This document shows positions 3,427 through 44,313 of a stretch of DNA of 64,000 nt, piece after piece (the stretch's first letter is position 1; each line of letters starts with the position of its first letter). The stretch lies in assembly GCA_037142735.1 (NCBI GenBank), contig JBAXAB010000002.1:11988-75987 (forward strand). The letters run 5' to 3'. Made by a program: the position numbers and the translations under genes. The notes under the pieces were generated by a model that had not been told where the DNA came from, made no database searches, and worked only from the letters and a program-made list of their open reading frames with translations. The stretch is from a bacterium. Lineage in GTDB: Bacteria > Patescibacteriota > Minisyncoccia > Phycocordibacterales > CAIZLB01.

Positions 3427-3996
3427 ATGATTGCACAACTTACTGGAACGGTAGCTTATATTGATTTAAAATTCATCATCCTTAATGTGAACAATGTTGG
3501 ATACAAAGTATTCACAACAAACGATGAACTCTCTACCCTCTCGGTTGGATCAGAGCGAGCATTTTGGATACATAGCACCATACGAGAGGATGCATTTGAT
3601 TTATATGGTTTTACTAAAAAAGAGAATCATGATTTTTTCGAGCTTCTCATCACGGTGTCTGGGATAGGACCCAAGTCCGCCTTAGGGATTTTATCGGTTG
3701 CTAGCGTAGAAAGCCTACGCGAAGCGATTGTTTCCGGAGAGACGTCATATATCACAAAGATAGGTGGTATCAGTAAAAAGATTGCAGAAAAAATCACAAT
3801 AGAGCTTCGTGGAAAAGTAACCAGTGATGAAGGTGAATTCTCTAAAGGGAGAGGTAAAAATGACGCTGATGCCCTTGATGCATTACGTGCGCTCGGATAT
3901 AGTCACAAAGAGGCTCGTGAGGCGCTAGAAAAGGTCCCAGCTACAATCAAGGACCCTGGAGAGAAGGTTAAAGCCGCACTGAAGAATCTCGCCTAA
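3427..3996 (+). CDS. ruvA: Holliday junction DNA helicase RuvA
   Basis: 189 aa; RuvA N-terminal OB domain, HhH region (GIGPKSA) and C-terminal domain; -10 TATAAT just upstream. Confidence 0.85.
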   Translation: MIAQLTGTVAYIDLKFIILNVNNVGYKVFTTNDELSTLSVGSERAFWIHSTIREDAFDLYGFTKKENHDFFELLITVSGIGPKSALGILSVASVESLREAIVSGETSYITKIGGISKKIAEKITIELRGKVTSDEGEFSKGRGKNDADALDALRALGYSHKEAREALEKVPATIKDPGEKVKAALKNLA

Positions 3997-18973: not shown

Positions 18974-21511
18974 ATGAACAAAATTATAAGTATAATGGTA
19001 GGTGTCGCAGATTTTATAATAGAAAAAATTGGTATAGCTTTAGAAAAAGCGACCTTTTTTGTAAGAAAACTAATTCACTTGTCTACTCATCATATTTCAA
19101 AAACCAATTACAAGACAAGCAAAAAACGCCTACTTGTAGATGCTTTATTGGTCTTAATTACCCTAGCGTTTCTCGGGTTAGCGGTCGTTGTCTTTTGGGC
19201 AGTTTCCCTAAAAACACCTAGCCCTGACTCTTTTGACAACAGACTGCTTGGTCAATCGGCCAAAATATATGACAGAACCGGCACCATTCTCCTTTATGAC
19301 TTGAGCCAAAAGATTCGAAGAACTGTGGTTCCTTTCGATAAAATATCACCTTATATTAAGAAAGCTTCTATTGCTATCGAGGATGAAAACTTTTATCAAC
19401 ACGGTGGTATTCAGGCCAAATCTATCATTCGAGCGATATTTGCAAACATTCTTTCTTTGAAGTTTAGCCAGGGTGGCTCTACTATCACCCAGCAAGTGGT
19501 CAAAAACTCACTCCTTTCTAACGACAAATCCATTGCGAGAAAAATCAAAGAATGGATTCTGTCTATAAAACTAGAACAAGTTGCGGATAAGGACACTATT
19601 TTAAACATGTACTTAAACGGGTCGCCTTATGGGGGAAACATTTACGGTGTAGGTGAGGCCACAGAACAGTTTTTTGGAAAAAAGCCTGATGAAGTAAATC
19701 TTGCAGAGGCTGCGTATATTGCAGCCCTTCCCCAGTCTCCAACTACACTGTCTCCTTATGGCACCAATACTCAGAAATTGGAAGATCGTAAAAATACTGT
19801 CTTGAGAAAAATGTTGGACCTAAAGACGATCACCCAAAGTGAATATGACGAAGCCCTTAAAATAAAAGTTGTTTTCCAACCAAAAAACCTTGCTGGGATC
19901 AAGGCTCCTCACTTTGTAATGTATATAAAAGATTACTTAGAAAATAAGTATGGAGATGACATGCTTCAAAACGGGGGTCTAAAAATTGTTACAACCCTAG
20001 ACTACGACCTTCAACAAAAAACTGAAGACATCGTAAAGAAATATGTTATTGATAATCAAAAAAACTTTAAAGCTACTAATGGTTCTATGGTTGCTACTGA
20101 TCCAAAGACAGGACAGATTCTTATGATGGTTGGATCACGAGATTATTTTGACAAAGACATAACTGGAAACTTTAACGTAGCAACGGCCCGAAGACAGCCA
20201 GGGTCTTCCTTCAAACCTTTTGTGTACGGAACAGCCTTTAACCAAGGATATCTTCCTGAAACACCTGTTTTTGACGTTAATACTGAATTTAACTCGGGAT
20301 GTACCGTTTCTGGAACTCCCATTTCAGGAAGTGCTAAGTGTTATCACCCACAAAACTATAGTCTCAACTATAAAGGACTCATGAGCTTCAGACAGGCGTT
20401 AGGAGCGTCTCAAAACATCCCTGCGGTTAAAGTTTTATATTTAGTTGGAGTAGATAATGCAATTAAAACGGCTCGGGCTATGGGAATTGAAGGTCTCTCT
20501 GGTGCAAATCAGTATGGACTATCTCTTGCTCTTGGTGGAGCAGAGGTTTCATTACTCGACATGACTTCTGCATATGGGGTATTTGCAAATAATGGGTTAA
20601 GAAATCCAACAACAGGAGTATTGAGCGTCACGACAGCTGATGGTCAAGTATTAGAATCGTATGATTCTCAGAAAACAACAGGTCAACAAGTGATTCCAGT
20701 TCAAACTGCTGAAATGATGAACGATGTTTTGTCAGATATATATGCCAGAAATTCAATTTTTACTCTTTCTTATACAGGAGACAGACAGGTGGCTATTAAA
20801 ACAGGAACAACCAACAGCTCTCGTGATGCTTGGACTATTGGTTACACTCCGAGTATCTCAATTGGGGCGTGGATGGGAAACAATGATAACACTCCGATGG
20901 CTCAAATCGCTTCTGCTAGAATTGTCTCCCCTATGTGGAAACAAGTTCTTGATTATGCCCTCCAAAAAGTACCTGTTGAACAATTCGAAAAACCTGTGTA
21001 CGACGATTCTGCTAAAAAACCTTTCATTCGCGGAGTTTGGCACACCAACAGCGGTGAAGTTCATTCTGAACTATATTGGATTGATAGATCTAACCCTATG
21101 GGGCCACAACCTTCAAACCCCTCTTCCGATCCTGAATTCAATTTATGGGAAGCTGGAGTGACTGGTTGGGCTCAATCTGGATCTGCACAAGGACTCCTCC
21201 CTCAGCCTGTTATTAACCCTTTAAATCAATCTGGGGCATTTGGTGTAAGAATAGACAGCCCTGTATACACACCTAAAAATAATCGAATAACTGTCAGTGT
21301 TTACAACTATGCTCCGGAAACATCGAAAGTCGACTATACAGTTAATGGTGAAAGTATTGGGACAGCAACACAAGCACCTTTCTCTATTTTGTTTACACCA
21401 GCACAAGTGAAAGGTCTTCAGGATGAAAACGAAATCAAAGCTACAGCTTTTGATCTTTTAGGTAGACATTTTGAAGCAACAACGGTCTTTTCAACTGATT
21501 CTGGAAACTAA
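18974..21511 (+). CDS. class A penicillin-binding protein (glycosyltransferase + transpeptidase)
   Basis: N-terminal TM helix; GT51 motifs (EDENFYQHGG, GGSTITQQ); transpeptidase SxxK (SSFKPF), SxN, KTGT; extra C-terminal beta-rich extension. Confidence 0.85.
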   Translation: MNKIISIMVGVADFIIEKIGIALEKATFFVRKLIHLSTHHISKTNYKTSKKRLLVDALLVLITLAFLGLAVVVFWAVSLKTPSPDSFDNRLLGQSAKIYDRTGTILLYDLSQKIRRTVVPFDKISPYIKKASIAIEDENFYQHGGIQAKSIIRAIFANILSLKFSQGGSTITQQVVKNSLLSNDKSIARKIKEWILSIKLEQVADKDTILNMYLNGSPYGGNIYGVGEATEQFFGKKPDEVNLAEAAYIAALPQSPTTLSPYGTNTQKLEDRKNTVLRKMLDLKTITQSEYDEALKIKVVFQPKNLAGIKAPHFVMYIKDYLENKYGDDMLQNGGLKIVTTLDYDLQQKTEDIVKKYVIDNQKNFKATNGSMVATDPKTGQILMMVGSRDYFDKDITGNFNVATARRQPGSSFKPFVYGTAFNQGYLPETPVFDVNTEFNSGCTVSGTPISGSAKCYHPQNYSLNYKGLMSFRQALGASQNIPAVKVLYLVGVDNAIKTARAMGIEGLSGANQYGLSLALGGAEVSLLDMTSAYGVFANNGLRNPTTGVLSVTTADGQVLESYDSQKTTGQQVIPVQTAEMMNDVLSDIYARNSIFTLSYTGDRQVAIKTGTTNSSRDAWTIGYTPSISIGAWMGNNDNTPMAQIASARIVSPMWKQVLDYALQKVPVEQFEKPVYDDSAKKPFIRGVWHTNSGEVHSELYWIDRSNPMGPQPSNPSSDPEFNLWEAGVTGWAQSGSAQGLLPQPVINPLNQSGAFGVRIDSPVYTPKNNRITVSVYNYAPETSKVDYTVNGESIGTATQAPFSILFTPAQVKGLQDENEIKATAFDLLGRHFEATTVFSTDSGN

Positions 21512-21780: not shown

Positions 21781-22881
21781 TTAGCGGTTCATGGGCATAA
21801 CTACGTATGAAAACGAATCATCATTTACAACTTTTATTACCAAAGGTGTATTTGTACCACTAAACATAAAAGTAAGACTGTCTGCTTTCAAAGAATTAAA
21901 AGCATCACTAATATATCTAAAATTAAAATTCAGACTAAGGTCGTCCCCTTTTACTGTTGCATTAATTAGAGAGGAATTTTCTCCAACTTCGTTGTTTTTA
22001 GAGATTATTTCCATCTGTTTCTCTTTTGAGTGGACGGTTAGTTTTACGTGATTAAAGGTATCAGTGAAAATAGTGCTTAGTTTTAAGCTGTTTATGAGGT
22101 CTTGTTTCAAAATAGTGACCTCAGAGGTAAACTCTTTTGGAAAAATAGCCTTATAATTAGGAAAGTTTCCTTCTGTTGTTCTTGAGACAAGATACAAATC
22201 GTCAACCATAATAGCCATTTGATTTTTATCTATCAAAATTGATATTTCAGCCTTTATATCGTCAATAATCCTTATAATTTCAGAGACGTTCTTGATAGGA
22301 ACAAGAATTGCAGGAAAATCTACTCCTTTTTTTGTTCTTACTTTCTTTTCAGCAAGACGGAAGCCATCTGTGGCAACAAAAACAATAGAATCTCCCTCAG
22401 GATAGATTTTAACACTAGATAGCTCTGGTTTTATAGTAGAGGTAGCGGAACTGTATGAAACACTCCTTAAACCCTCTATAAAGTCTTCTGAGGCTATATT
22501 AAAACCATTAGGTGATTCAATTCGCGGTATTGAAGGAAATTCTTCAGGGGAGAAACTTTTGATAATCGTACTGTTTTTTGAAGTTGATACGTGAAGATTG
22601 TTTTCTATGGTCTCTAATATTATAGATTTTTCGTTTCCAACATTTGAAAGAAATCCGTTCAAGATCGTACCCGGTGCAGCTACCTGTCCTTTTTCTGTCA
22701 CTTTAACAGGAATTTGAATTTCAATCCCTAAATCCAAGTTAGTGGCTTTGATAGTTAAACTATTATCCTGCGCTTCTATAAATATGCACTTCAAAATAGG
22801 CAAAGAAGCGTTTCTTCCGGTGACTTTTTCTGCTTTCGCTACAGCATGTGCCAGTTTTTCTTTAACGGATTCAATTTTCAT
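21781..22881 (-). CDS. dnaN: DNA polymerase III beta sliding clamp
   Basis: 366 aa, three-domain clamp; sits immediately downstream of dnaA. Confidence 0.85.
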   Translation of the reverse strand: MKIESVKEKLAHAVAKAEKVTGRNASLPILKCIFIEAQDNSLTIKATNLDLGIEIQIPVKVTEKGQVAAPGTILNGFLSNVGNEKSIILETIENNLHVSTSKNSTIIKSFSPEEFPSIPRIESPNGFNIASEDFIEGLRSVSYSSATSTIKPELSSVKIYPEGDSIVFVATDGFRLAEKKVRTKKGVDFPAILVPIKNVSEIIRIIDDIKAEISILIDKNQMAIMVDDLYLVSRTTEGNFPNYKAIFPKEFTSEVTILKQDLINSLKLSTIFTDTFNHVKLTVHSKEKQMEIISKNNEVGENSSLINATVKGDDLSLNFNFRYISDAFNSLKADSLTFMFSGTNTPLVIKVVNDDSFSYVVMPMNR

Positions 22882-23180
22882 TTCTTTATTGTATGTATTT
22901 AATTTTTATTTAATTTTTTACAAACCCCTTATTATTAGTCCTGTTGATATGTGGATAATCCCCAATCCCTTTTAATCTCTTTGTCTAATCGAAATTTTTA
23001 TCCCCACTCGTTTGTATAAGGTGTTGTTGGTTTGCGGGAAAAGTTCCATTGTTTATTTTTTCTGTGGAGAACTCCTTAATTATACACAACCTATTCTAAA
23101 ATAATTATGTATTTATCCTATACTTTTCCCGAAGTTTTCCACCGCTAGTACACAATCTTATTAACAAAAGATACAATTTT
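22882..23180. promoter_or_regulatory. candidate oriC (dnaA-dnaN spacer with DnaA-box cluster)
   Basis: AT-rich 299-bp spacer with TGTGGATAA (22950-22958, perfect), TTATCCCCA (22998-23006), TGTGGAGAA (23063-23071), TTATCCTAT (23113-23121). Confidence 0.55.
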
Positions 23181-24512
23181 TTAAATGAGCGCCTTAATCT
23201 GGTTTATTTCTCCGGCCAGTTCACTGTTGTTTTTCAATTCGTTTCTAATCTTTTCACACGAGTGAATGATGGTTGTATGGTCTCTTCCTCCCATTTTTTG
23301 TCCAATTGACGGGAAAGAGTGGTTAAATTCTTCACGGAGAAGATACATGGCCACTTGTCTGGGTTTAACTATCTCTTGGCGGCGAGTTTTGCTGTAAATA
23401 ATCTCTTCTTCTATGTTGTAGTAAGCAGAAACGGCCTTTATAACATCCTTAGCAGAGACATTTTTCTGAGGTTTTGTGGTATTTTTGGTAAGATTCTTAA
23501 TTTCCAACAGTGTTAAGTCCCGGTTCTTTAACTGGGACTGACAAATAATATTGTTTAAGATCCCTTCTAGTTCTCGAATGCTGCCGTGTACTGTTGTGGC
23601 AAGGAAGTCAGCTGTTTCGTGAGGTAAGTTAAAATTTCCATGCAGAGCTTTGGTCTTCAGGATGGCAATACGAGACTCTTGGTCAACAGGAGAAATATCA
23701 ATGATCATTCCCTGCATAAATCTTGATTTTAAACGATCCTCGAGGTTTTGGAGGTAATTGGGGTGCATATCAGAAGAAAAGATAATCTGTTTATTGCTGT
23801 CATATAAATAGTTGAACAGATGAAACAATTCTTCCTGGGTCTTTTCCTTATTAGAAAGAAATTGGATATCATCCATTATAAAAACATCGTATTTTCGGTA
23901 CTTTTCCTTAAAATTGTTAACTTTGTTGGCCTGCACAGCATTTACATAGTCCACCGTGAACTTTTCTGAGGTTACGTAGTGTACCCTCTTCTCTTTGTTG
24001 TGGTTTTTAAAGTAGTTCCCTACCGCCTGCATAAGGTGGGTTTTTCCCAAGCCGGTATTTCCGTGGAAAAAGAGCGGGTTATAAGCCACTGGCTTCTTTA
24101 AAATTGCCTGGGAAGCCGCATGCGCCAGTTCGTTAAAGGGCCCAACCACAAAAGTTTCGAAAGTATAGCGTGGATTAAGGTTGTCTTCAGGATTTATAAC
24201 AAGATTGTCCAAAGGAAGTTCTTTTGTGGGTCCTGGCTGAGGTGTTTTATCAGACTTTTTCTTCTCAGCTTGTCCTATTGAATACTCTAAAGACCTAACG
24301 TTTTCCTCTATATTACGTAAAGATTGCAAAATAACCTTATGGTACTTGGTCTGGAGCCAATCTTTAACAAAAGTGTTAGGAACCGCAAGAAACACTACAC
24401 CGTCCTCAATTTTGGATATAAAAGTATCTTTGAACCACGTGGTGAAGTTCGGGCGCGAGACTTCGAGTTCAACTTGAACCAAAGCTGTATCCCAAATTTT
24501 CTGTGTGTTCAT
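23181..24512 (-). CDS. dnaA: chromosomal replication initiator DnaA
   Basis: 443 aa; AAA+ Walker A GNTGLGKTHL, domain IV DNA-binding helix-turn-helix. Confidence 0.9.
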   Translation of the reverse strand: MNTQKIWDTALVQVELEVSRPNFTTWFKDTFISKIEDGVVFLAVPNTFVKDWLQTKYHKVILQSLRNIEENVRSLEYSIGQAEKKKSDKTPQPGPTKELPLDNLVINPEDNLNPRYTFETFVVGPFNELAHAASQAILKKPVAYNPLFFHGNTGLGKTHLMQAVGNYFKNHNKEKRVHYVTSEKFTVDYVNAVQANKVNNFKEKYRKYDVFIMDDIQFLSNKEKTQEELFHLFNYLYDSNKQIIFSSDMHPNYLQNLEDRLKSRFMQGMIIDISPVDQESRIAILKTKALHGNFNLPHETADFLATTVHGSIRELEGILNNIICQSQLKNRDLTLLEIKNLTKNTTKPQKNVSAKDVIKAVSAYYNIEEEIIYSKTRRQEIVKPRQVAMYLLREEFNHSFPSIGQKMGGRDHTTIIHSCEKIRNELKNNSELAGEINQIKALI

Positions 24513-24657
24513 AGTGGTTGCTATTATAGCTGTTCACAAACTCTTTGGAACTTGTGGAAAGTTTATAAACATGTTGATAAGGTGTGGACGGGGTGGATAA
24601 CCTCATTTCAACATATAATTTTGCCAAATCGGATAAATAGTATATACTCTCCCCATC
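24513..24657. promoter_or_regulatory. dnaA/rpmH divergent promoter region with DnaA-box-like sites
   Basis: gGTGGATAA at 24592-24600 (1 mismatch), TGTGGAaAg and TGTGGAcgg nearby. Confidence 0.35.
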
Positions 24658-24792
24658 ATGTCTCAAACATATAATCCATCAAAGCGAAAAAGAGCAACCA
24701 CTCACGGGTTTCTTGTTCGATCTAAAACTCACGGAGGCAAGCGCGTTCTAAAGGCTAGACGTCGAAAGGGACGAAAGAAGCTTTCTGTATAA
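24658..24792 (+). CDS. rpmH: 50S ribosomal protein L34
   Basis: 44-aa product [44 protein letters not shown]; not in the ORF track (<60 aa); canonical position before rnpA. Confidence 0.85.
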
Positions 24793-24804
24793 GGGTTTTG
24801 TACT

Positions 24805-25158
24805 ATGTTGCCAAAAAAACAAAGACTAACTTCTGTTGAAATAGAAGAGGTTATGATCAAAGGAAAGCCACTCTTTTCTGATTTTTTTGTGGTTAAATTC
24901 ATAAAAAACCACACATTAGAGATTGCGCAGGGTTTTAAGATCTCAGCTGTGTCTCCAAAAAAACCTTTTTCCACAGCCGCTCTTCGTAACAAGGCTCGCC
25001 GTAGAATATACTCTGCTCTAACTTCTTTTTTGGAGACACAAAAACCAAAATCAGGACTTCTAATTGCTATTGTTGGAAATAAAAAAGTCCTGGATATTCC
25101 CCTTTCTGACTTAAGTTTCTCTCTAGAGCAGACTTTCAGAAAAGGAGGTATACTGTAG
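24805..25158 (+). CDS. rnpA: ribonuclease P protein component
   Basis: 117 aa, basic, RnpA-like; rpmH-rnpA-yidC synteny. Confidence 0.8.
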   Translation: MLPKKQRLTSVEIEEVMIKGKPLFSDFFVVKFIKNHTLEIAQGFKISAVSPKKPFSTAALRNKARRRIYSALTSFLETQKPKSGLLIAIVGNKKVLDIPLSDLSFSLEQTFRKGGIL

Positions 25159-25161
25159 CCC

Positions 25162-25896
25162 ATGTTTTCATCATTTTATAACAATTTTCTTTATCATCCT
25201 TTATACAACGGCCTTGTTTATCTTATTGGGGTTGTCCCCTACCACGACGTTGGTATAGCGGTAGTGGTTCTTACTTTGGTAGTTAAGTTTATCCTTTTCC
25301 CTCTTTCAAAGAAGAGTGTAGTAACTCAGATCAAAATGAAACAGCTTGATCCTGAATTAAAAGCATTACAGGCAAAGTATAAAGATAATCGACAGGAATT
25401 GTCGCAACAATTACTTACGTTCTATAAAAAGAATCAATTAAACCCTTTCTCTGGCCTTTTTCTGATCCTTCTCCAGTTGCCTATTATCTTTGCTCTTTAT
25501 AAAGTTTTTTACTCTGGAGACATCCACATTATAAATACAACAATTCTCTATTCTTTTGTGGGCATTCCCGCTGCTATTAATACTATTTTCTTGGGAATAT
25601 TCGACCTTGCTATTAAACACTCGCTTTTCCTATCTATATTTGTCGGTATTACCCAGTTTATCCAAGCTCAGTTGGTTGTTCCTCCCCACGATAAAACTAA
25701 ACCAATAGATCCTAAAGACATGGGACAAAATTTGGCTCGTAGTATGAATACTCAAATGAAGTATGTTCTACCTGTATTTGTTGCCTTTATTTCATATTCC
25801 TTAGCCAGTCTGGTTTCTGTCTACTGGATCACAAGTAACATTTTCGCTATCGGTCAAGAGTTGTATTTCCGTAAAACTATTAAGAAGAAGTCTTAA
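25162..25896 (+). CDS. yidC: membrane protein insertase YidC (short Gram-positive/CPR type)
   Basis: 244 aa, five TM helices, conserved hydrophilic groove region; synteny after rnpA. Confidence 0.8.
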   Translation: MFSSFYNNFLYHPLYNGLVYLIGVVPYHDVGIAVVVLTLVVKFILFPLSKKSVVTQIKMKQLDPELKALQAKYKDNRQELSQQLLTFYKKNQLNPFSGLFLILLQLPIIFALYKVFYSGDIHIINTTILYSFVGIPAAINTIFLGIFDLAIKHSLFLSIFVGITQFIQAQLVVPPHDKTKPIDPKDMGQNLARSMNTQMKYVLPVFVAFISYSLASLVSVYWITSNIFAIGQELYFRKTIKKKS

Positions 25897-25899
25897 AAA

Positions 25900-27312
25900 C
25901 TAACGAGTTTTAGTGCTGCTTGCACTAGTTGTAGATGTTGGTGTTGTTATAACTGCTGCAGGTTTACCCAGTTTCAGTCCCCAGAATGAATAAGTATTCT
26001 TGTCTGTAAATACCAAGTAGTCGTCATTTTTACTTAGGCTTAGGCTTGTGATATCAAATGGTATTTTGGTTAGAGCGGTTGGGTTAAGTATGAATGTGCT
26101 TTCCCCGGTACTCAGGTTAAACTTCCAGATGCTGTCATCGAAGTGTACTGTGCCCATGTACCAATCATCAGGATAGTTGTTTTGGTTTGGAACTTGCTTT
26201 GGAACCGCACAATACACAACAGACGGTTCTTTGTTGCCCCACACGCATTTCTCAGGCATAGTTTGTGCAAACAGTGTCCTTTCTGATGTGTCTTTTATAT
26301 TGTGAACAATCAATTGTAGTCCGTTATTGTTAGTGTCGCTGTATAGAATATTCTTTCCGTCTTTTGATACAAGGGTTGTTAAACCAGTTACACCACCTAG
26401 CACTTTTTTAATGGTAGAAGTTTTAACATCCAATGAATATAAATATCCATAAGCCAGAGCCGAAGGTTTTGTGTTTAAAAAGATTGTGCTGGCGCTTCCC
26501 CATTGTGGAAGCCATTCTCTGAACGGAGAATCAAAAATTCCAATTTTAGAACCACCGTCTAAGTTTGCAATGGTTCCTCGAGGGTTACCATTCCTAACAT
26601 AGAAGAAACGTGTTTTGTCAGGAGACATTGCCATCTCTGTAACGTTTAAAGGAAGGTTCGCGACGGTGGTTGTTGCAATACTTGATGTTGCTAAGTTTGG
26701 AATTTCCTGCAGACTCATTAGTCTAGTCTGTATACCATCGTCCCCTACTATGTTTCTTATAATTACTTGGTTTCCTGAGGTATTAAAATATGCTTCTTGT
26801 AGTTTTGTTAAGGTAACGTTTGTTAATCGATCGAGCTCGTTTGTGCTTGTTGCTGTTTCATAGATATTTCCATTAGCCTTTAAAATAAAACGGATAAATT
26901 CCATAGGCACAAGTTTTCGTTTACTTAAGGCCAATTTAATTTCTTTTGTGGATGTCCCTGTTGGGGTGCTAGATGTAGAAATGTCTACGTTTCTGGTTAT
27001 AAAGTCCCCTCCTGCTACAGGTTGAGCAGAGATTAGTCGCAATACATAGATGGGTTTTGTGGTAGTCGCAGGAGTTTGGTTAGTAGAGGTGCTTGAATCT
27101 GTGTCAAAAGATCCCAAGTTTTTATTTTTAGCAGTGTTTTGAGTTGAATCAAGATTGACCTGATCAAATCCATAAAAAGTTGGAGTATTTTTTGCGATAG
27201 GATTTTGAGGTTCTGGGATAACTCTATTCAAATAAAAATAGAAACCTAAAAGCCCTCCAATTGAAACGATGAGTATTATAAAAACAGCGATGGTAACTTT
27301 CGAGCTGGACAT
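25900..27312 (-). CDS. membrane-anchored protein with Ser/Thr-rich linker and beta-propeller-like (TolB-like) repeats
   Basis: 470 aa; N-terminal TM helix, low-complexity S/T region, repeated DGK/DD..Y beta-strand motifs; last gene of the T4SS-like minus-strand operon. Confidence 0.4.
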   Translation of the reverse strand: MSSSKVTIAVFIILIVSIGGLLGFYFYLNRVIPEPQNPIAKNTPTFYGFDQVNLDSTQNTAKNKNLGSFDTDSSTSTNQTPATTTKPIYVLRLISAQPVAGGDFITRNVDISTSSTPTGTSTKEIKLALSKRKLVPMEFIRFILKANGNIYETATSTNELDRLTNVTLTKLQEAYFNTSGNQVIIRNIVGDDGIQTRLMSLQEIPNLATSSIATTTVANLPLNVTEMAMSPDKTRFFYVRNGNPRGTIANLDGGSKIGIFDSPFREWLPQWGSASTIFLNTKPSALAYGYLYSLDVKTSTIKKVLGGVTGLTTLVSKDGKNILYSDTNNNGLQLIVHNIKDTSERTLFAQTMPEKCVWGNKEPSVVYCAVPKQVPNQNNYPDDWYMGTVHFDDSIWKFNLSTGESTFILNPTALTKIPFDITSLSLSKNDDYLVFTDKNTYSFWGLKLGKPAAVITTPTSTTSASSTKTR

Positions 27313-27369: not shown

Positions 27370-28671
27370 TTATTTTGCCGGACCTACATATGTATACACA
27401 TATGTAGGCAGGCCTCTTCTGTCTCCAACCTTACTTCCCCAGTTTGATGTTGTATAGTCGCCCTTTGTCATTAGTCCTGTATTTGAGTTGTTTGCTATTA
27501 TCTGCCCATTGGTCCCAACAATTCCGGCGTGCCCAAATGTTCCTTGTGTTGGAGAAACTACTATATCCCCGGGTTGTGCGTCTGTTAGTCCTCCTGGCAC
27601 CAGCTTCCAATCAGGGTTCTGACCAAGCGCTTCAGCAAGGTTTGCTGTGCTCGCTCCTCCCCCTGCTTGTTTACCTGTGGCTTTTAATGTAACTGTGTTT
27701 ACTCCGTCAGCACACCCAACTCTATCGGAGGAACAAAAGTCTGATTGGTGTGTACCTACGGAATTTTCAGCTGTTCTTGCGATCGCTTCTCTTCCAGAAG
27801 ATCCGCTTATATCAGCAGAGCCTGTATTTGCAGCCGCTAAACTGCCCGGAACAGAGGCTGATGTTCCAGCTGAGGCAACACTTGTGCCCGCCCCAACACT
27901 TCCAAGTGCTGTCGTCGCCTTCGCATCCAACGAACAATTCGTCAACGCAGGATTGATTGTATTAAGTATCAACCATGTACCCAACGCTAAGGCTAAACCA
28001 AACAAAGCATTATCAACCTTTGTCCTCCCTTCTGACTTACCAAACAGTGAATCTGTTGTTGCATATTGAAAGCCACCAATCACAATCATGACTACAGCCA
28101 ACATTCCTGCTAGTGCAATACCAATACGAAACCAAGAGTTTAACAACTTACACAGAGAGTTACTGTCTTGGGTGATTTGATATATCTTTCCTTTGCTCTC
28201 GTCTGTTCCTATAAATGTACCAACAGGTGCAAGAAGTGTGTAGTTACAGATTCCGTTTTTGCAGATGTTGGTGGAAGTGTCTTTGTAAGTTGGGGTAGGG
28301 TTTTTTTCTGCTTGTGCTGCATAATAGCGAGAGTCTGGGTACATGTTTGGCACCAGGCTGTCTGCGGGTTTCGCCAAGTAAGCACTATAGTCAAAGTTTG
28401 ATGTGGGAGAAGGGCTCATTGTAGGACTTCCCCCTAGTTTGTCTGGACCGGCAACCACTGTTCCTGCAGCGTTTGATGTGTCAACGTTCAGTCGTTGCGT
28501 AGTGTAGGGTAGTTTTACACTAGTGACCGCAGGAGCATTTTCTTTTATGTCTGGTAGCGGTGGCAAGGGTGATATTACATCTTGCTGAGCCAGAACAGAA
28601 ATGGGTGTAACTAAAAGGAGTAGTAAAACAGTTGAAAATATTAACTTTAAATTAAAGAAACTTTTATTCAC
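27370..28671 (-). CDS. VirB2/TrbC-like pilin module fused to C-terminal CHAP peptidoglycan hydrolase domain
   Basis: signal peptide; NGICNYTLLAPVG (compare VirB2 NNICTFILGPFG) then two TM helices separated by a charged loop; C-terminus has CHAP-type Cys...His (FCSSDRVGCADG ... GHAGIVG). Confidence 0.55.
   Translation of the reverse strand: MNKSFFNLKLIFSTVLLLLLVTPISVLAQQDVISPLPPLPDIKENAPAVTSVKLPYTTQRLNVDTSNAAGTVVAGPDKLGGSPTMSPSPTSNFDYSAYLAKPADSLVPNMYPDSRYYAAQAEKNPTPTYKDTSTNICKNGICNYTLLAPVGTFIGTDESKGKIYQITQDSNSLCKLLNSWFRIGIALAGMLAVVMIVIGGFQYATTDSLFGKSEGRTKVDNALFGLALALGTWLILNTINPALTNCSLDAKATTALGSVGAGTSVASAGTSASVPGSLAAANTGSADISGSSGREAIARTAENSVGTHQSDFCSSDRVGCADGVNTVTLKATGKQAGGGASTANLAEALGQNPDWKLVPGGLTDAQPGDIVVSPTQGTFGHAGIVGTNGQIIANNSNTGLMTKGDYTTSNWGSKVGDRRGLPTYVYTYVGPAK
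27911..28175. repeat. 265-bp nucleotide-identical repeat, copy 1
   Basis: identical to 29315-29579; similarity continues more loosely for about 110 bp beyond. Confidence 0.85.
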
Positions 28672-28716
28672 TTTTTTATTATATCAAAAATAAACAAAAT
28701 AAGTTTATGTAAAAAA

Positions 28717-30216
28717 CTACTCTCCGCGGTTTGCAGGTCCCCAGTAACCGTTTGGCCCACTGATATATCCCCTCTCTTGTATTACTCTTTTCATTATGTC
28801 TACACTGGATTTAATACTTAAGATCGGGTCACCTAGAACATCTTGTGGGGTGACTCCGTTATTTCTTGCAACTACTATTACCTCAGGGTCTCTTACACTA
28901 AGTGAAAACAACCCTTCTGAAGAAAATGAGGATTTTCCGTCCAGCTTGTGTGCAACAGTGTTGTCTTTCGCATTGAATCCTGTTGTCTCTTTGTTTGCAA
29001 TGCTTACAAATAAGCTTGCCCATTGGTCCTGGGTTGGATTTCCATTTGGAAAATATTTTGCTGAGTCTGAAGGACTTAAATTCATTATTCCAGAATCTTT
29101 AATATCCTGTATTAAAGCCTCGTTCCATGTTTGGTCTGGAAACATTAGACCAGCTTGGGTGTTGGCTACTATAGACCCTGGGCCTTTTACACCATAAGAA
29201 GCACCTGATCCTAAGTCCAATGTTCCGTTTGTTGCATTTCTCATTACTGTCCCGCCCGCCAGGGCCCCTGTCATCATTCCGTCACTGACTGTCGCCACCG
29301 TACTATTAATCGCCGTCGTCGCCTTCGCATCCAACGAACAATTCGTCAACGCAGGATTGATTGTATTAAGTATCAACCATGTACCCAACGCTAAGGCTAA
29401 ACCAAACAAAGCATTATCAACCTTTGTCCTCCCTTCTGACTTACCAAACAGTGAATCTGTTGTTGCATATTGAAAGCCACCAATCACAATCATGACTACA
29501 GCCAACATTCCTGCTAGTGCAATACCAATACGAAACCAAGAGTTTAACAACTTACACAGAGAGTTACTGTCTTGGGTGAATTGATACACCGTTCCGTTGC
29601 TTTTATTCCCCAAGAACGTGCCTATTGGTGCAAGAAGTGTGTAGTTACAGATTCCGTTTTGGCAGATGTTGGCGGAGTTTGCGGTTCCGTTAGTTGTTCC
29701 ACCTTGAGTCACATTATTATTTCTACCGGTAGGCCAATTCCAGGTATCTGGACCTTGTTGGAATAGAGACTTTTCCTGTTTTACAGCTTCATCCCCAACT
29801 ATATCGCTGTTTGGAAAAGGTAACGCCCCTGTGTTGTTTGAGTACGAACCATCTAGGTTTAGGGTGTATCCTGTCCCGTCACCTGTTAAAGTGGTAGACG
29901 GTTTGCCGTCAGTGCCCAACTGCAAGTGTTGGCTGGTTATAGACGTGTTAGGTGAATATGGTGTTAAGTCTGAACCACTGAAGTCTCCATTCGCAGGTCC
30001 TGTAAGTGCTTTTGTGTCGGCCGGTTTGTTATTTGCTGTACCGCTCAACCCACCGCCTAGCACTACTGTTTTTTGGCCTGGGCCAGTAACAGCTTCGTTG
30101 GGCACTCCTTCTGGTAGTGGGGGTAGATCATCAGCTTTCGCGTAAATAGGTGTAACTAAAATTGCTAGTATATAAAAAGTGAGTATTGATTTATGTTTAA
30201 AGAAACTTTTATTCAC
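28717..30216 (-). CDS. VirB2/TrbC-like pilin module fused to C-terminal putative lysozyme-like/lytic transglycosylase domain
   Basis: paralog of 27370-28671 with the same central pilin module; different N-terminal region and a different C-terminal domain (ANKETTGF...SEGLFSLSV, tentatively SLT-like). Confidence 0.5.
   Translation of the reverse strand: MNKSFFKHKSILTFYILAILVTPIYAKADDLPPLPEGVPNEAVTGPGQKTVVLGGGLSGTANNKPADTKALTGPANGDFSGSDLTPYSPNTSITSQHLQLGTDGKPSTTLTGDGTGYTLNLDGSYSNNTGALPFPNSDIVGDEAVKQEKSLFQQGPDTWNWPTGRNNNVTQGGTTNGTANSANICQNGICNYTLLAPIGTFLGNKSNGTVYQFTQDSNSLCKLLNSWFRIGIALAGMLAVVMIVIGGFQYATTDSLFGKSEGRTKVDNALFGLALALGTWLILNTINPALTNCSLDAKATTAINSTVATVSDGMMTGALAGGTVMRNATNGTLDLGSGASYGVKGPGSIVANTQAGLMFPDQTWNEALIQDIKDSGIMNLSPSDSAKYFPNGNPTQDQWASLFVSIANKETTGFNAKDNTVAHKLDGKSSFSSEGLFSLSVRDPEVIVVARNNGVTPQDVLGDPILSIKSSVDIMKRVIQERGYISGPNGYWGPANRGE
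29315..29579. repeat. 265-bp nucleotide-identical repeat, copy 2
   Basis: identical to 27911-28175. Confidence 0.85.
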
Positions 30217-30263
30217 CTTTTTATTATATCAAATCTGACCTCTCAGTAATACCAAAAAAACTA

Positions 30264-31388
30264 TTAATAGATAAGGTCAAGTTGAGTTCCGGCCTGCTGC
30301 AGAACTTTGTCGCCATTTGAGGCAGACACATCAATTGTAGACTGGCCGCTATCTTGTTTCACTTTTTGTAACACAAGAAAATCTTGATTTTGAGGTAGGG
30401 TGTCTAATGTTGTCCCGTTTATTTTCCATACATATGGAATAGATTTTTTACTGCCAGTACTAAAGAAATATGGATAAGCTCCCATTTGTAAATCCTGGGC
30501 TCCAAAATTGTATGTTCCAATTGCTGCTGTGTTAAATATAGGTCCATAAGTTGGATGGATCTCATACATTACTAATGCGGGCTGGACCGGTCCAACATCT
30601 AGACTTCCTACACCTGTAGAATCTTTATTAAAGGGGTCATAGGCTGTCACCTCTACCGAGGTCGGTTTCGCTAGGATGGATCCTGAAAAATCATAGAAGT
30701 TTTTTCCATAACCAGATTTGTCTGCATAGTTTGTATGGTCAATTCTCCAATTATAGATGGCCTTAGAAGGTTGAATTTTTGCTCCAACATCATTTGTGAT
30801 ATTTGGCATGGCCACGAATTGCACATATGCTTCTGGTGTGTACAGAGCTTTTCCTTTATAGAAAGGGGGTGTGTATGTATTAGCTTGCCAAAGCACATCC
30901 ACATCAGAAGGTTTAAAATTGAAGTTTTTAATAACTTCTGCACCGTATTTTGGTTGAATATGAAGTTCAATTTTGTTTGATTGCCCGTCCGTCCCTGCTT
31001 TAAATATGAACTGCTTTTCACCTTGCCCCTTAAGAACGCTCTTTCCATTCATGACCCAATTTATCTGAGCGGCATCTATGTCTATTCCTCCGTATGCACT
31101 TACATTAATAGTCACCGTCTCTCCTGGTTGTGGCACCTCCGGGTTCACATCAACAGATACTTGTTCTTTGATATCAGGTTCCTTGGCGCTAAGTGGAAGT
31201 TTAGCCTGCTCCTCAGGTGACAGATTTGCGTAGGGGTTTGGTAATATCAAAACATGAGGTTCTGTAGAGGTTGCAGATGTGTTGATGTCTTGGGCTTTAA
31301 CTAAACCTGCACCAAAAAATAGAATCAAAAAAGATAAGAGAAATATAAAAAAATATTTACGAGTAAACTTTTTATTCATCGATTTCAT
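30264..31388 (-). CDS. hypothetical secreted beta-rich protein
   Basis: 374 aa with signal peptide; no catalytic motif recognised. Confidence 0.45.
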   Translation of the reverse strand: MKSMNKKFTRKYFFIFLLSFLILFFGAGLVKAQDINTSATSTEPHVLILPNPYANLSPEEQAKLPLSAKEPDIKEQVSVDVNPEVPQPGETVTINVSAYGGIDIDAAQINWVMNGKSVLKGQGEKQFIFKAGTDGQSNKIELHIQPKYGAEVIKNFNFKPSDVDVLWQANTYTPPFYKGKALYTPEAYVQFVAMPNITNDVGAKIQPSKAIYNWRIDHTNYADKSGYGKNFYDFSGSILAKPTSVEVTAYDPFNKDSTGVGSLDVGPVQPALVMYEIHPTYGPIFNTAAIGTYNFGAQDLQMGAYPYFFSTGSKKSIPYVWKINGTTLDTLPQNQDFLVLQKVKQDSGQSTIDVSASNGDKVLQQAGTQLDLIY

Positions 31389-33737: not shown

Positions 33738-34382
33738 TTATTTTTGTGGTACGTGAATTGGTTTATCTACGTCGCCTGGGTTAAAGATTTTATAGAAGAC
33801 TTCAACCAGTTCTTCTGTGCCTAATTGTACAACACGAATACCACAACGAACCAATCCTTGCTGTACTACCTCGAGACGTTGAATAAGTTGACTGCGGTGT
33901 TCTTCGAAATTGGCTGTTTTGTCTGCTGACTCCTCTGCTTTACTCTTTTTTGAAAAGAAACTAGATGCCAGACTACTCTTCCCTCCTAGGATTGGTGGTG
34001 TGTATGGAATAACGATGAAAAAGTTTTTAGTCATGATGTTCGTCTGCTCTGTAAAACTTTTGATGAACTCTATATATTCACGTGTCTGTAAGCGCATTAA
34101 ATCAGTTGATTGATCCTTGTAACGAGTTTCAAGAAGGGCGATGTATGGTCGAATGTCCAAGCGTCGTGATTGAACACTGATCTGAACCGAGAAATTCAAA
34201 GAGTTTAGAAAGTTCTGGAATTGAAACGTGATAGCTTGTTGCTCATCGGCAGATTTCAATGCAAAGTTTAATGACGAAGCAAGCAAGACCGCACGCATAG
34301 ATCCGTCTTTTAAAATCAACACACCATCACGAACCTCTTTTATTGGGACAAATGATTGTGTTGGAGAAGCGTCTAGTACCAT
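33738..34382 (-). CDS. VirB4 N-terminal-domain-like protein (separate ORF)
   Basis: 214 aa ending 5 nt before the ATPase ORF start, in a different frame; pattern resembles the N-terminal region of Gram-positive VirB4 homologs. Confidence 0.4.
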   Translation of the reverse strand: MVLDASPTQSFVPIKEVRDGVLILKDGSMRAVLLASSLNFALKSADEQQAITFQFQNFLNSLNFSVQISVQSRRLDIRPYIALLETRYKDQSTDLMRLQTREYIEFIKSFTEQTNIMTKNFFIVIPYTPPILGGKSSLASSFFSKKSKAEESADKTANFEEHRSQLIQRLEVVQQGLVRCGIRVVQLGTEELVEVFYKIFNPGDVDKPIHVPQK

Positions 34383-34403: not shown

Positions 34404-34877
34404 TTAAAATGGTTTTGTATTTGGAACAGTGCTGCCATGAATCATACCTCCTTGTTCGTGTGAATATATAGTGTCATTTATGTCCAAGCTCCAGCTCAAT
34501 TCTTTTAATTTACTGTCAGACAATTTTGGCACAGCGTTCCATGGCATAAAACTTGCAATAGCTTTTTCCTCGATCTCCTTTTCTGTTTGTGGTTTCTTCT
34601 CTTCCTTTTTCCATATATAAAGCCGATTTTTAGTGAAATATTCAAAGGCAGATTGAATGACGTCAATCATGGGGCGTCCGTTCACTTTGTAGAATGCCAT
34701 CATGATACCTAAAATTATAAAGGGTATGGCAGCAACTATGCCAATAAAAGTTGGAAGTAATTTGTACGCAAGAAAAGCTGCCCCTGCCCCTCCAGCCAAG
34801 TATGCGAATTGCTTAAATGTAAATGGTCCGAAAATTTTATCCTCTACTTCGATGAACTGAGGGACTTGGTACTTCAT
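34404..34877 (-). CDS. PrgI/VirB3-like small membrane protein
   Basis: N-terminus MKYQVPQFIEVEDKIFGPFTFKQFAYLAGGAGAAFL, characteristic of the PrgI family; two TM helices. Confidence 0.5.
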   Translation of the reverse strand: MKYQVPQFIEVEDKIFGPFTFKQFAYLAGGAGAAFLAYKLLPTFIGIVAAIPFIILGIMMAFYKVNGRPMIDVIQSAFEYFTKNRLYIWKKEEKKPQTEKEIEEKAIASFMPWNAVPKLSDSKLKELSWSLDINDTIYSHEQGGMIHGSTVPNTKPF

Positions 34878-39230: not shown

Positions 39231-40134
39231 TAATTTTCAGGTTCATGAACTGATTCCAGAAGGCGCCAGAATCATTTGTTGAAAATATTATATCATTCTT
39301 CTTAAAGTATTGACTGATATTTATTAACACCTGTGATTGAGATTGACCCACCTCTTTGACAGTTTTTAATCCAAGTAGAGATTTGACCGGATCGGTTTCT
39401 TGAAGAGCTACCATTTTCATACCTTCTGACGCAAGAACAAAAGAATTTGCAAGGCTTGATTGCTCCACATTCATTTCAATAGGGGCTTTAACTTTCATGA
39501 TGTTGTAGCCTATTTGGCTGTATATTTTAGCCATTTCAGTAAGATTGTTAGCATATTTCTCCTTATTATTAGCCACTATTTGGTAATTTTGAACGATCAC
39601 ATCTGCCAAGTTGTTACCGTACTGTTTAATCTGGTCTTTCGAAGTCGGCACGAAAAAATGGACTTGGTTTGCAAGGAATTCCGGTTGAGGTAGATCTGAT
39701 TGGTTAATTTGTCCCATAACCACGCTGGTTACATCAGCTGTCGACTGGTCGGTTACCCCATCTGTTTGTTGGGCATACATATAGCCTGAGAATATCTTTT
39801 TGGTCACTCGGTCAGACACAGAATCTCCTGGCTGAGGTGCAAAAGGGTCACTAGAAGTAGCAAGTCCTTCGATGTTTGAGTTGTCTTGTGCGTCTTGTAT
39901 CGCATTCGTAACTACGTTTCCAAGGTCTGTTGTTGTTCCTTGTAATCCAATAATAGCGTCATTTGGGTGGAGGGCTCGTTGAGCAATCGCTATTTTGTAT
40001 GCTACCGAGCCTAAAATAATGGAAAAACATACTGCCCCAAGAATGAGAATAGTCTTACTGGGTGCACTATCGGTGCGTGAGTTTTTATTCTGAAAGTTTT
40101 TTTGAAGAGTCTGCTGATTTTTTTTCAGATCCAT
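39190..40134 (-). CDS. hypothetical bitopic membrane protein (VirB8-like topology)
   Basis: 314 aa; cytoplasmic N-terminus, single TM helix, Gln/Asn-rich extracytoplasmic domain; first gene of the operon. Confidence 0.35.
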   Translation of the reverse strand: MDLKKNQQTLQKNFQNKNSRTDSAPSKTILILGAVCFSIILGSVAYKIAIAQRALHPNDAIIGLQGTTTDLGNVVTNAIQDAQDNSNIEGLATSSDPFAPQPGDSVSDRVTKKIFSGYMYAQQTDGVTDQSTADVTSVVMGQINQSDLPQPEFLANQVHFFVPTSKDQIKQYGNNLADVIVQNYQIVANNKEKYANNLTEMAKIYSQIGYNIMKVKAPIEMNVEQSSLANSFVLASEGMKMVALQETDPVKSLLGLKTVKEVGQSQSQVLINISQYFKKNDIIFSTNDSGAFWNQFMNLKINDQSTQQNNATGN

Positions 40135-43266: not shown

Positions 43267-44313
43267 TTGAAATATATGAATTTAGGTCTATCGAAGAGGA
43301 TCGGTATATTTTGGGGTGGAATGCTTATTCTTGGCCTTATTTTAGCAACAACTGTTCACCCTTCCGTCGTGCTTGCTAGTGCCCCATCTAGTATTAAGCC
43401 CATCGAAGCCTTTGAAGCTGTTAGAAATAGTAGCCCACAAAACAGAATCCTTTCAGTCAAGATCTCAAGAGCTTTGGTCTTAGATGATTCTGCACTTTCT
43501 CCTATACACAGTCCTATATATGATGGAACTAGTAGTATGGATTCAATTCCTACTTCTATTGATAATGAACAGATTTACCTTTATACCGTCAAAGATGGAG
43601 ATACCGTGCAGGACGTTGCTAAGATGTACGACGTATCTGTTAATACAATTCTATGGGCAAACGACATATCAACCAAAACTTCCCTGAAAAGTGGCCAAGT
43701 TCTGATGATTTTACCCGTAAATGGTGTTAAGTATACGATTAAGAAGGGTGATACTGTGGAAAGTATTGCTAAACGCTTTAAATCACACACAGAAGACATC
43801 GTCCATTTTAATGCTTTGGATGAGAAGGGGGGGCAAATCTCAATTGGTGACGAAATTATTATTCCAGACGGCCAAATGGAATCTTCAAAGCCTCTAAGTA
43901 ATGTTAACCCTATAGACCTGGCTTCAACTGCTGGTAAGAACGGATTAATTATTGGTTATTTTATTAGACCAGTCGTAAATGGTATTAAGACTCAAAACCT
44001 CCATGGCCACAACGGTATCGACATTGGAGCGCCAATTGGAGCTACCATTAGAGCTCCAGCAGACGGAACTGTGGTTCTTGCTAGAGTTGGTGGATGGGGT
44101 GGTGGTTACGGGAACTACGTGATCCTTCAACACCCTAATGGAATGCAGACATTGTATGGACACATGAGCAAGGTGGACGTGTCAATCGGAGACTCTGTAA
44201 CTCAAGGAGAAAAAATTGGTGAAGTTGGCTCATCCGGGGACTCTACCGGCCCTCACCTTCATATCGAGGTTCATCGCAAAGGTGGTGCTAATCCCCCGAA
44301 TAAGTTTTACTAA
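43267..44313 (+). CDS. LysM-domain M23 family metallopeptidase
   Basis: two LysM repeats (YTVKDGDTVQDVAKMY; YTIKKGDTVESIAKRF) and M23 motifs (HNGIDIGAP ... GPHLHIEVH). Confidence 0.8.
   Translation: MKYMNLGLSKRIGIFWGGMLILGLILATTVHPSVVLASAPSSIKPIEAFEAVRNSSPQNRILSVKISRALVLDDSALSPIHSPIYDGTSSMDSIPTSIDNEQIYLYTVKDGDTVQDVAKMYDVSVNTILWANDISTKTSLKSGQVLMILPVNGVKYTIKKGDTVESIAKRFKSHTEDIVHFNALDEKGGQISIGDEIIIPDGQMESSKPLSNVNPIDLASTAGKNGLIIGYFIRPVVNGIKTQNLHGHNGIDIGAPIGATIRAPADGTVVLARVGGWGGGYGNYVILQHPNGMQTLYGHMSKVDVSIGDSVTQGEKIGEVGSSGDSTGPHLHIEVHRKGGANPPNKFY

Follow-up and report, generated by a model that had tools for sequence, protein, structure and literature searches.

The window, by which we mean the whole 64-kb stretch of DNA that was analysed (from contig JBAXAB010000002.1 of a Patescibacteria genome), contains two tandem genes, here called pA and pB, that lie on the minus strand within a type IV secretion system (T4SS) gene cluster. 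Both open reading frames (ORFs) start with GTG, and the JGI and NCBI copies have the same sequence. The two proteins are 48% identical in a BLASTP alignment and follow a common plan, which consists of a Sec signal peptide, a disordered variable region, a hairpin of the Pfam family PF18895, a flexible linker, and a C-terminal enzyme domain. The genes and their parts are as follows:

28717-30216, minus strand: pB gene, 499 aa, NCBI MEI8061841.1 ('MAG: pilin [bacterium]', MAG being metagenome-assembled genome); pilin-like module plus SLT/lysozyme-like domain
30139-30216, minus strand: pB Sec-type signal peptide, aa 1-26; model helix 4-21; cleavage site inferred between ...PIYA and KAD
29674-30138, minus strand: pB variable N-region, aa 27-181; G/T/N/P-rich, predicted disordered; orthologous to the N-terminus of gene 1 in the related locus L001
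29326-29673, minus strand: pB pilin-like module, aa 182-297; Cys-containing cap, helix 218-252, loop, helix 258-286, LNTINPAL motif
29185-29325, minus strand: pB flexible linker, aa 298-344; T/G/A/S; predicted local distance difference test (pLDDT) <50
28720-29184, minus strand: pB SLT/GH23 lysozyme-like domain, aa 345-499; predicted catalytic Glu E410 in NKETTGF
27370-28671, minus strand: pA gene, 433 aa, NCBI MEI8061840.1 ('MAG: pilin [bacterium]'); pilin-like module plus NlpC/P60-CHAP domain
28588-28671, minus strand: pA Sec-type signal peptide, aa 1-28; model helix 4-21; cleavage site inferred between ...SVLA and QQ
28273-28587, minus strand: pA variable N-region, aa 29-133; P/S/A/T-rich; orthologous to the N-terminus of L001 gene 2
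27922-28272, minus strand: pA pilin-like module, aa 134-250; small beta-hairpin 141-145/163-167, helix 172-205, loop, helix 212-239, LNTINPAL motif
27796-27921, minus strand: pA flexible linker, aa 251-292; A/S/G/T
27373-27795, minus strand: pA NlpC/P60-CHAP papain-like domain, aa 293-433; Cys320-His381-Asn394

AlphaFold2 models of pA and pB were built from family alignments. In both models, a hydrophobic N-terminal helix at residues 4-21 represents the signal peptide, and the central part forms two long helices (172-205 and 212-239 in pA, 218-252 and 258-286 in pB; pLDDT about 80-94) that are joined by a short loop, TTDSLFGKSEGRTK, containing Lys and Arg. The C-terminal domains are globular with pLDDT >90. 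Model confidence is low for the N-region, which is rich in Gly, Thr, Asn, Pro, Ser, and Ala (residues 29-133 of pA and 27-181 of pB), and for the linker of ∼42-47 Ala, Ser, Gly, and Thr residues. Four Cys residues lie in the parts of pA/pB predicted to be outside the membrane. From the models we infer that the N-terminus is outside, the loop in the cytoplasm, and the C-terminus outside; because the signal peptide would be cleaved and the hairpin would run out, in, and out again, the enzyme domains would be extracytoplasmic.

A preliminary description of this locus, made from the sequence alone, had proposed that both proteins carry a common motif plus two transmembrane (TM) helices and that this central module is pilin-related. 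The motif reads NGICNYTLLAPVG in pA and NGICNYTLLAPIG in pB, one residue apart, and the two modeled helices of each protein agree with the proposed layout. PF18895 (T4SS_pilin) is matched by pA with 21.8 bits (E 2e-4) and by pB with 21.6 bits, over model positions 4-69 of 71. The Pfam cut-off is passed by positional orthologues, namely both genes of the related locus L003 (gene 1, 32.7 bits; gene 2, 31.0 bits) and P0007 (28.6 bits), whose cores are 66-69% identical to those of the window. At E <1e-3, the family is matched by 45 of the 47 homologues from databases and by 81 of the 91 ORFs taken from GTDB genomes. The predicted membership of pA and pB in PF18895 is clear by way of their close homologues, their own scores being sub-threshold, and the pilin relationship is upheld at the level of the family.

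In the models, pA and pB have the hairpin of PF18895 pilins, which comprises a signal peptide, two hydrophobic helices, and a short charged loop. At 433 and 499 residues, they fall outside the stand-alone size of such pilins, which is about 100-170 residues. Within the subfamily, 87 of 95 modules are followed by at least 100 residues and seven by fewer than 30, and the stand-alone pilins terminate right after LNTINPxL. In pA, the LNTINPAL motif spans residues 236-243 at the outer end of helix 2; 47 aligned homologues show no variation at T238 and N240 and almost none at I239 and P241. Possible roles of the motif are a contact in assembly or a site of processing at the junction of the pilin and enzyme parts. 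A search with the module profile returned only the pA and pB copies in the window.

The preliminary description had also equated NGICNYTLLAPVG with the VirB2/TrbC motif NNICTFILGPFG. This equation was rejected, as three alignments pair the VirB2 segment 'MVNNICTFILG' with SLCKLLNSWFRIGIA, where helix 1 begins, and not with NGICNYTLLAP. The VirB2/TrbC set used for comparison consisted of nine sequences verified against plasmid records. Neither pA nor pB matches Pfam TrbC (PF04956) at E up to 0.1, and weak matches (E about 1e-4 to 1e-3, 19-22 bits versus a cut-off of 27.9) are limited to 2 of the 47 and 7 of the 91 relatives. The module is like a VirB2-type hairpin in topology, size, and locus, and its homology to canonical VirB2/TrbC proteins appears weak.

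Single-sequence searches of the PDB with the C-termini of pA and pB found nothing, so family profiles and fold searches were needed for these domains. The pA domain scores 18.2 bits against CHAP and 14.1 bits against NlpC_P60 directly, both sub-threshold. An exhaustive phmmer search collected 532 relatives of this domain, and among the top 60 the residues Cys320, His381, and Asn394 of pA are invariant; Pfam matches in these 60 are to CHAP (15), NlpC_P60 (7), and Amidase_5 (6). The top 13 Foldseek hits for pA are all NlpC/P60 peptidoglycan endopeptidases, including CwlO, SagA, MepS, and LytE, and the best 11 have a probability of at least 0.99 and a target TM-score of 0.54-0.66, with the leading ones reaching a probability of 1.0 and target TM-scores of 0.60-0.66. 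For the pB domain, the closest solved structure is DslA of Bdellovibrio bacteriovorus (PDB 6TA9), and for the pB family, the Glu in the ES motif lines up with the catalytic E143 of DslA. The earlier assignments, CHAP-type for pA and, tentatively, lysozyme/SLT-like for pB, are consistent with these results. As a pair, pA and pB have both hallmarks of VirB1-type enzymes, a predicted SLT/GH23 domain with its catalytic Glu and a predicted CHAP/NlpC-P60 Cys-His domain.

The partner domains of relatives are diverse. Among the 91 GTDB ORFs, Pfam recognized VanY (9), NlpC_P60 (9), YkuD (5), Peptidase_M15_4 (3), Calx-beta (3), SLT_2 (2), Amidase_5 (2), and SLT, Amidase_2, 3D, CHAP, Peptidase_M15, TIG, fn3, and Pur_ac_phosph_N (1 each). 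SLT is matched by 7 of the 47 database homologues.

The two genes share a central tract:

27911-28175, minus strand: gene-conversion tract, pA copy; aa 166-254, covering the end of the extracellular cap, both helices, and the linker start
29315-29579, minus strand: gene-conversion tract, pB copy; aa 213-301, 100% identical to 27911-28175

Both ORFs and the identity of this tract, which had been pointed out before, were recovered: the copies agree at 265 of 265 nt, and the exact match cannot be extended by one base. A repeat search located two further common stretches, one of 62 nt at 89% identity that encodes NGICNYTLLAP (28214-28275 and 29615-29676) and one of 90 nt at 77% that covers the promoter and signal peptide (28599-28688 and 30144-30233). 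In a codon-guided alignment, identity is 100% over pA residues 166-254 and falls abruptly on both sides to sequence that cannot be aligned (18-60% nt identity). The tract ends coincide with the predicted borders of the pilin-like module.

Three syntenic loci were recovered, L001 (an NCBI MAG), L003 (a 790-kb JGI contig), and L002, each of which has a tandem pair; the gene order of L003 is the same as that of the window through to dnaA. Within a genome, the longest exact match between the paralogs is 265 nt in the window, 407 nt in L001, 430 nt in L003, and 358 and 322 nt in the GTDB genomes L041 and L039, whereas the longest exact core match between genomes is 33 nt. In the 64 codons of the hairpin, identity between the window and L001 is 90.6%, with synonymous differences at 16 of 62 amino-acid-identical codons versus 0 of 64 within each genome, which rules out plain purifying selection or protein-level constraint as the cause. 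If the paralogs were as diverged as the window and L001, the estimated chance of finding no synonymous difference in the 88 codons of the tract would be ∼4e-12. The pair of L063 is not homogenized and shares no exact 15-mer.

The N-terminal regions are orthologous by position, that of pB to L001 gene 1 (E 7e-28) and that of pA to L001 gene 2 (E 4e-13). Because the pairs occupy the same syntenic slot and their N-termini are orthologous in this way, the pair predates the split of the window, L001, and L003 lineages, and the identity is therefore attributed to repeated gene conversion, that is, to concerted evolution by recurrent exchange between the tandem copies. The preliminary description had offered recent duplication or ongoing gene conversion; the paralog cores are identical in five assemblies, which favors conversion, and recent duplication is ruled out by the age of the pair.

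The same description had raised the possibility that hydrolase or N-terminal regions are shuffled, and this is borne out. The SLT domain of pB, which is gene 1 in the window, is 78% identical (E 1e-111) to the C-terminal domain of gene 2 in the closest relative, L001, so that the slot of the SLT domain differs between the two. In a second clade, three unrelated N-terminal regions occur on one core and C-domain. The C-terminal sequences of 86 fused proteins fall into 29 clusters, and C-domains are unrelated in 107 of the 118 protein pairs that share at least 70% core identity. N- and C-terminal modules are, to judge from these comparisons, reshuffled between orthologous slots of relatives. As in polymorphic toxins, a conserved part is combined with C-terminal enzyme domains that are exchanged among close relatives. 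In L039, a 3D domain (glycan-type) and a CHAP domain are paired on the 322-nt identical core, a predicted arrangement that echoes the pairing of a glycan cutter with a peptide cutter in the window.

Two observations were made on the sequences of relatives. A third C-terminal type, with the pattern 'YVV.P...GTP...WAV.GD.G...GE.S', is shared at 56% identity by gene 1 of L001 (1718-3199) and gene 1 of L003 (8573-9949); it has no Pfam match and no PDB sequence match, and our guess is a DPBB, 3D, or GH75-like barrel. The locus L002/L094 (JGI Ga0194051_1004105, 6645 bp) consists of a 3018-bp unit with two pilin-enzyme genes in ∼2.2 repeats, with five modules in all; its units are nearly, not fully, identical, and the array may be either a genuine tandem amplification or an artefact of assembly. 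Searches of metagenome contigs gave no match to the exact core 33-mer and only four contigs with a degenerate core pattern.

The pA/pB pair lies within a minus-strand cluster that encodes PrgI, a TraC-N-like ORF, a VirB4-like ATPase, and several unassigned membrane or secreted proteins. VirB4 and PrgI are 1.6 kb and 4.2 kb upstream of the pair, respectively. The neighboring genes are as follows:

34404-34877, minus strand: PrgI (VirB3-like)
33738-34382, minus strand: TraC/VirB4 N-terminal-like ORF, 214 aa
31855-33732, minus strand: VirB4-like ATPase, TraG P-loop / AAA_10
30264-31388, minus strand: p374, upstream neighbor, 374 aa, secreted or anchored; homologue in 70 of 79 related loci
25900-27312, minus strand: p470, downstream neighbor, 470 aa, N-terminal TM helix; homologue in 70 of 79 related loci

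Scanning the GTDB species genomes yielded 244 relatives, and 79 loci were kept, which are labeled Paceibacterota, Nomura-, Taylor-, Zambryski-, Lloyd-, or Wolfebacteria, Saccharibacteria, or 'bacterium'; these relatives and the synteny are in line with the placement of the window in Patescibacteria. No more than 6 kb separate the module from VirB4 in 67 of the 79 loci and in 47 of the 48 with full flanks. This linkage to VirB4, p374, and p470 argues that the module-plus-enzyme gene is a regular part of this type of T4SS, and p374 and p470 are likely unrecognized T4SS components. The earlier remark that such a fusion is unusual holds with respect to classical T4SSs and fails within this Patescibacteria lineage, where the 244 relatives make it common. 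Neither VirD4 nor a relaxase was seen among the cluster ORFs scanned, no small same-strand ORF that could be an immunity gene fits the pB-pA gap (45 nt) or the pA-p470 gap (57 nt), and NCBIfam gave no useful match for any cluster protein.

Several further features of the window concern the secretion genes or the cell wall. VirB4 appears to be split into the 214-aa TraC-N-like ORF and a 625-aa P-loop ORF; the split is probably real and not a frameshift, because L003 is divided in the same manner (217 and 626 aa). The genes dnaN, dnaA, rnpA, and yidC (21781-25896) directly adjoin the T4SS cluster, which therefore places the secretion genes beside a likely replication origin, an arrangement described for some Patescibacteria (PMC12102498). 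A class A penicillin-binding protein is encoded at 18974-21511, so the organism makes peptidoglycan. About 3 kb past the T4SS cluster, a protein with LysM and Peptidase_M23 domains is encoded on the plus strand (43267-44313), of a kind counted among VirB1-like candidates in a 2025 survey (PMC12102498).

Our preferred reading, to which we assign a probability of about 60%, is that pA and pB are hairpin-tethered wall enzymes of the T4SS that jointly supply VirB1-type SLT and CHAP activities. Both proteins would be exported by Sec, the signal peptide would be cleaved, and the two-helix hairpin would hold them in the membrane, with the variable disordered N-region outside the cell and the enzyme likewise outside on a linker of ∼40-47 residues. 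pB would cut glycan strands (SLT/lysozyme-like, Glu410), pA would cut stem peptides or amide bonds (NlpC/P60-CHAP, Cys320/His381/Asn394), and the two would together open the wall at the secretion apparatus. The target is probably the wall of the cell itself; if the module is extruded, the wall of the host may be cut as well. The pilin-like module would serve as a common docking or assembly part, kept identical by recurrent gene conversion, and the conserved core would double as a recombination hub for the exchange of N-regions and enzyme domains. A hairpin that must fit the machine or the sister subunit would explain both why conversion maintains the identity and why the tracts end where the module does. 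The analyses above show how the two proteins are built, which domain families they contain, that catalytic residues are preserved, that the genes belong to a T4SS locus, and that the core evolves in concert while the proteins are mosaics; from them we infer the topology, the enzymatic activity, the wall that is targeted, and any polymerization of the module.

A number of results count against this reading. The PF18895 scores of pA and pB themselves are under the Pfam cut-off of 26.6 bits. An hhalign comparison of the module profile with the nine VirB2/TrbC sequences gives a probability of 13% (E 0.002, 65 columns, both helices in register), a PDB profile search reaches Agrobacterium tumefaciens VirB2 (8exh) only at E 8.3, and fold searches with pA and pB return no pilin, giving only unrelated hairpins for the hairpin part. 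Short-read assemblers pop bubbles, a step that could remove a few genuine differences inside near-identical repeats, so the figure of 100% identity may be slightly overstated. Lastly, the partner domains in relatives include wall remodelers (YkuD, VanY) and the nonenzymatic Calx-beta, TIG, and fn3, so that the label of a VirB1 equivalent may be too narrow.

It is possible, if unlikely, that the fused proteins are true pilin or tip subunits and that the T4SS extrudes an enzyme-studded, host-binding filament which breaches the wall of a host bacterium. The conserved core and its swappable N- and C-terminal modules would then act as a polymorphic-effector cassette system. Such a filament would fit the status of pA and pB as the sole pilin-like modules in the locus, the long flexible linkers, the variable N-termini, and the decoupling of the 29 C-terminal clusters from the core phylogeny; the end of the stand-alone pilins after LNTINPxL would make the fused proteins a pilin plus an extension. 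In the same direction, the solved structure nearest to the pB domain is that of DslA, a lysozyme that a predator uses on the wall of its prey (PMC7511926), and a T4SS with its pilin array is essential for the epibiotic growth of S. epibionticum (PMC10633639). However, no pilus has been seen for these systems, and packing may be sterically difficult if every subunit bears a globular domain of 140-155 residues. Neither enzyme is adjoined by an immunity gene, the cluster ORFs scanned include no VirD4 or relaxase, and homology to the VirB2 pilins that polymerize is weak. We regard as doubtful the further proposal of an 'enzymatic drill', in which a filament built of, or tipped with, enzyme-bearing, host-binding pilins would open the host wall for epibiotic feeding, and just as doubtful that the identical core would be both the shared assembly interface of that filament and the hub at which host-recognition and enzyme cassettes are swapped.

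Alternatively, pA and pB could be ordinary membrane-anchored autolysins for wall growth or division, with the hairpin a mere anchor and the T4SS location incidental. Helical hairpins are generic, as the outcome of the fold searches illustrates, and some partner domains (YkuD, VanY) are housekeeping wall enzymes. We nevertheless consider this improbable, since the gene is tightly linked across species to VirB4 (47/48 loci), p374 (70/79), and p470 (70/79), the module is strongly conserved with a nearly invariant LNTINP and a PF18895 match, and a plain membrane anchor would need no sequence homogenization. It is far less probable still that the 265-nt identity is an artefact, that is, a collapsed or consensus-corrected repeat, or the trace of a very recent duplication. 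The window does come from a metagenome assembly, but the same pattern recurs in independent assemblies from other samples, including the 790-kb contig, with tract lengths that vary by assembly (265, 407, 430, 358, and 322 nt), which argues against assembly collapse; the shared syntenic slot and positional N-terminal orthology place the duplication before speciation.

T4SSs and VirB2-like arrays are already known in Patescibacteria (PMC10633639, PMC12102498, PMC12857230), where the T4SS has no relaxases or known substrates and, in the only species tested, is required for epibiotic growth (PMC10633639, PMC11665869). The published arrays (Wang et al. 2023, PMC10633639; Quinonero-Coronel et al. 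2025, PMC12102498) belong to the same Pfam family, PF18895, and, like pA and pB, they are tandem low-identity paralogs in a monoderm-type T4SS with PrgI and VirB4 near dnaA. The 48% identity of pA and pB is within the published array maximum of 54%. Whereas those arrays are treated as small stand-alone pilins, pA and pB add an N-region of 105-155 residues and a C-terminal wall enzyme, and nucleotide identity of the core through gene conversion is not reported in the array papers. In the pA/pB lineage, VirB1-type domains are thus fused to the pilin-like proteins themselves. The literature searched contained no description of a PF18895 hairpin fused to wall enzymes, nor of its concerted evolution or shuffling; the raw architecture is not hidden, as the domain combination is present in precomputed Pfam annotations and the NCBI name is 'pilin'.

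PrgK of pCF10 and TraG of pIP501 are Gram-positive VirB1-type hydrolases with SLT and CHAP domains (PMC12102498). Like them, pA and pB are predicted to provide SLT-type and CHAP/NlpC-type activities in membrane-anchored form from within a monoderm T4SS cluster. They differ in that the two activities are divided over two proteins, in that the anchor is a pilin-like hairpin after a signal peptide and a long variable region instead of a single N-terminal TM helix, and in the free swapping of enzyme domains among relatives. The structural relative of the pB domain, DslA (Bd0314; PDB 6TA9), is a soluble secreted lysozyme specific for the deacetylated prey wall (PMC7511926); its second catalytic residue, Glu154, has no clear counterpart in the alignment, and pB has E-T where DslA has E-S. 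The pA domain has the fold and the Cys-His-polar triad of NlpC/P60 DL-endopeptidases (CwlO, LytE, SagA, MepS/Spr) and CHAP amidases, with sub-threshold sequence similarity, and is tethered by a pilin-like hairpin and not by LysM, SH3, or a coiled coil.

In Xanthomonas, peptidoglycan hydrolases (X-Tfe) are delivered by the X-T4SS into rival bacteria; these are cytoplasmic substrates with a C-terminal XVIPCD recognized by VirD4, and they have immunity proteins (PMC8740702). A T4SS tied to modular, diverse wall-degrading domains is common to both systems. Unlike X-Tfe, pA and pB have a Sec signal peptide and a TM hairpin, with no adjacent immunity gene and no VirD4 seen in the cluster. Polymorphic toxins in general (CDI, Rhs, X-Tfe) share with pA and pB the exchange of C-terminal domains, and their downstream immunity gene is missing here. 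In Neisseria, gene conversion from silent copies (pilS) diversifies the variable part of the pilin PilE, which is the basis of antigenic variation. Arrays of VirB2 paralogs occur in Bartonella and Anaplasma (PMC12102498). As in these pilins, recombination among gene copies and variable exposed parts are seen in pA and pB. In contrast to conversion of the Neisseria type, that of pA and pB homogenizes the core of two genes, and the variable parts are whole flanking modules.

The pilin-enzyme fusion bears on the role of the Patescibacteria T4SS. In a large Paceibacteria-like group, the locus has no VirB2-like proteins other than those fused to peptidoglycan enzymes, which accounts for why VirB1 seemed to be missing in the 2025 survey (PMC12102498) and makes pA and pB concrete candidates for breaching the wall, whether the cell's own or the host's. 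The locus is also a clean natural case of concerted evolution confined to one domain with modules shuffled on both sides, a combination that points to the pilin-like core as a constrained interaction surface. For annotation, it is a warning that proteins labeled 'pilin' here are predicted multi-domain enzymes.

Two promoter-like sites precede the pair:

30223-30231, minus strand: TGATATAAT before pB, extended -10-like, 6 nt 5' of the GTG start; probable leaderless promoter
28678-28686, minus strand: TGATATAAT before pA, extended -10-like, 6 nt 5' of the GTG start; probable leaderless promoter

The preliminary description had noted a common upstream promoter, and the sites found here agree with it, with TATAAT inside TGATATAAT at 28678-28683 and 30223-30228 of the minus strand. 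A scan with the sigma-70 consensus found promoter-like sites no more numerous than in shuffled sequence; it missed the TGnTATAAT sites because they have no -35 element, and they were located by reading the sequence directly. In the window, 7 of the 11 TGNTATAAT motifs sit 6-7 nt 5' of a start codon whose ORF is at least 60 aa long. The starts concerned are at 40134, 34877, 31379, 30216, 28671, and 27312 on the minus strand and at 3427 on the plus strand, and six of the seven belong to the T4SS cluster. No Shine-Dalgarno sequence lies between TGNTATAAT and the start codon at these seven starts, and the spacing is likewise kept 5' of the orthologues in L001 and L003. This pattern suggests leaderless mRNAs made from extended -10 promoters and several separate transcription units in the T4SS cluster.

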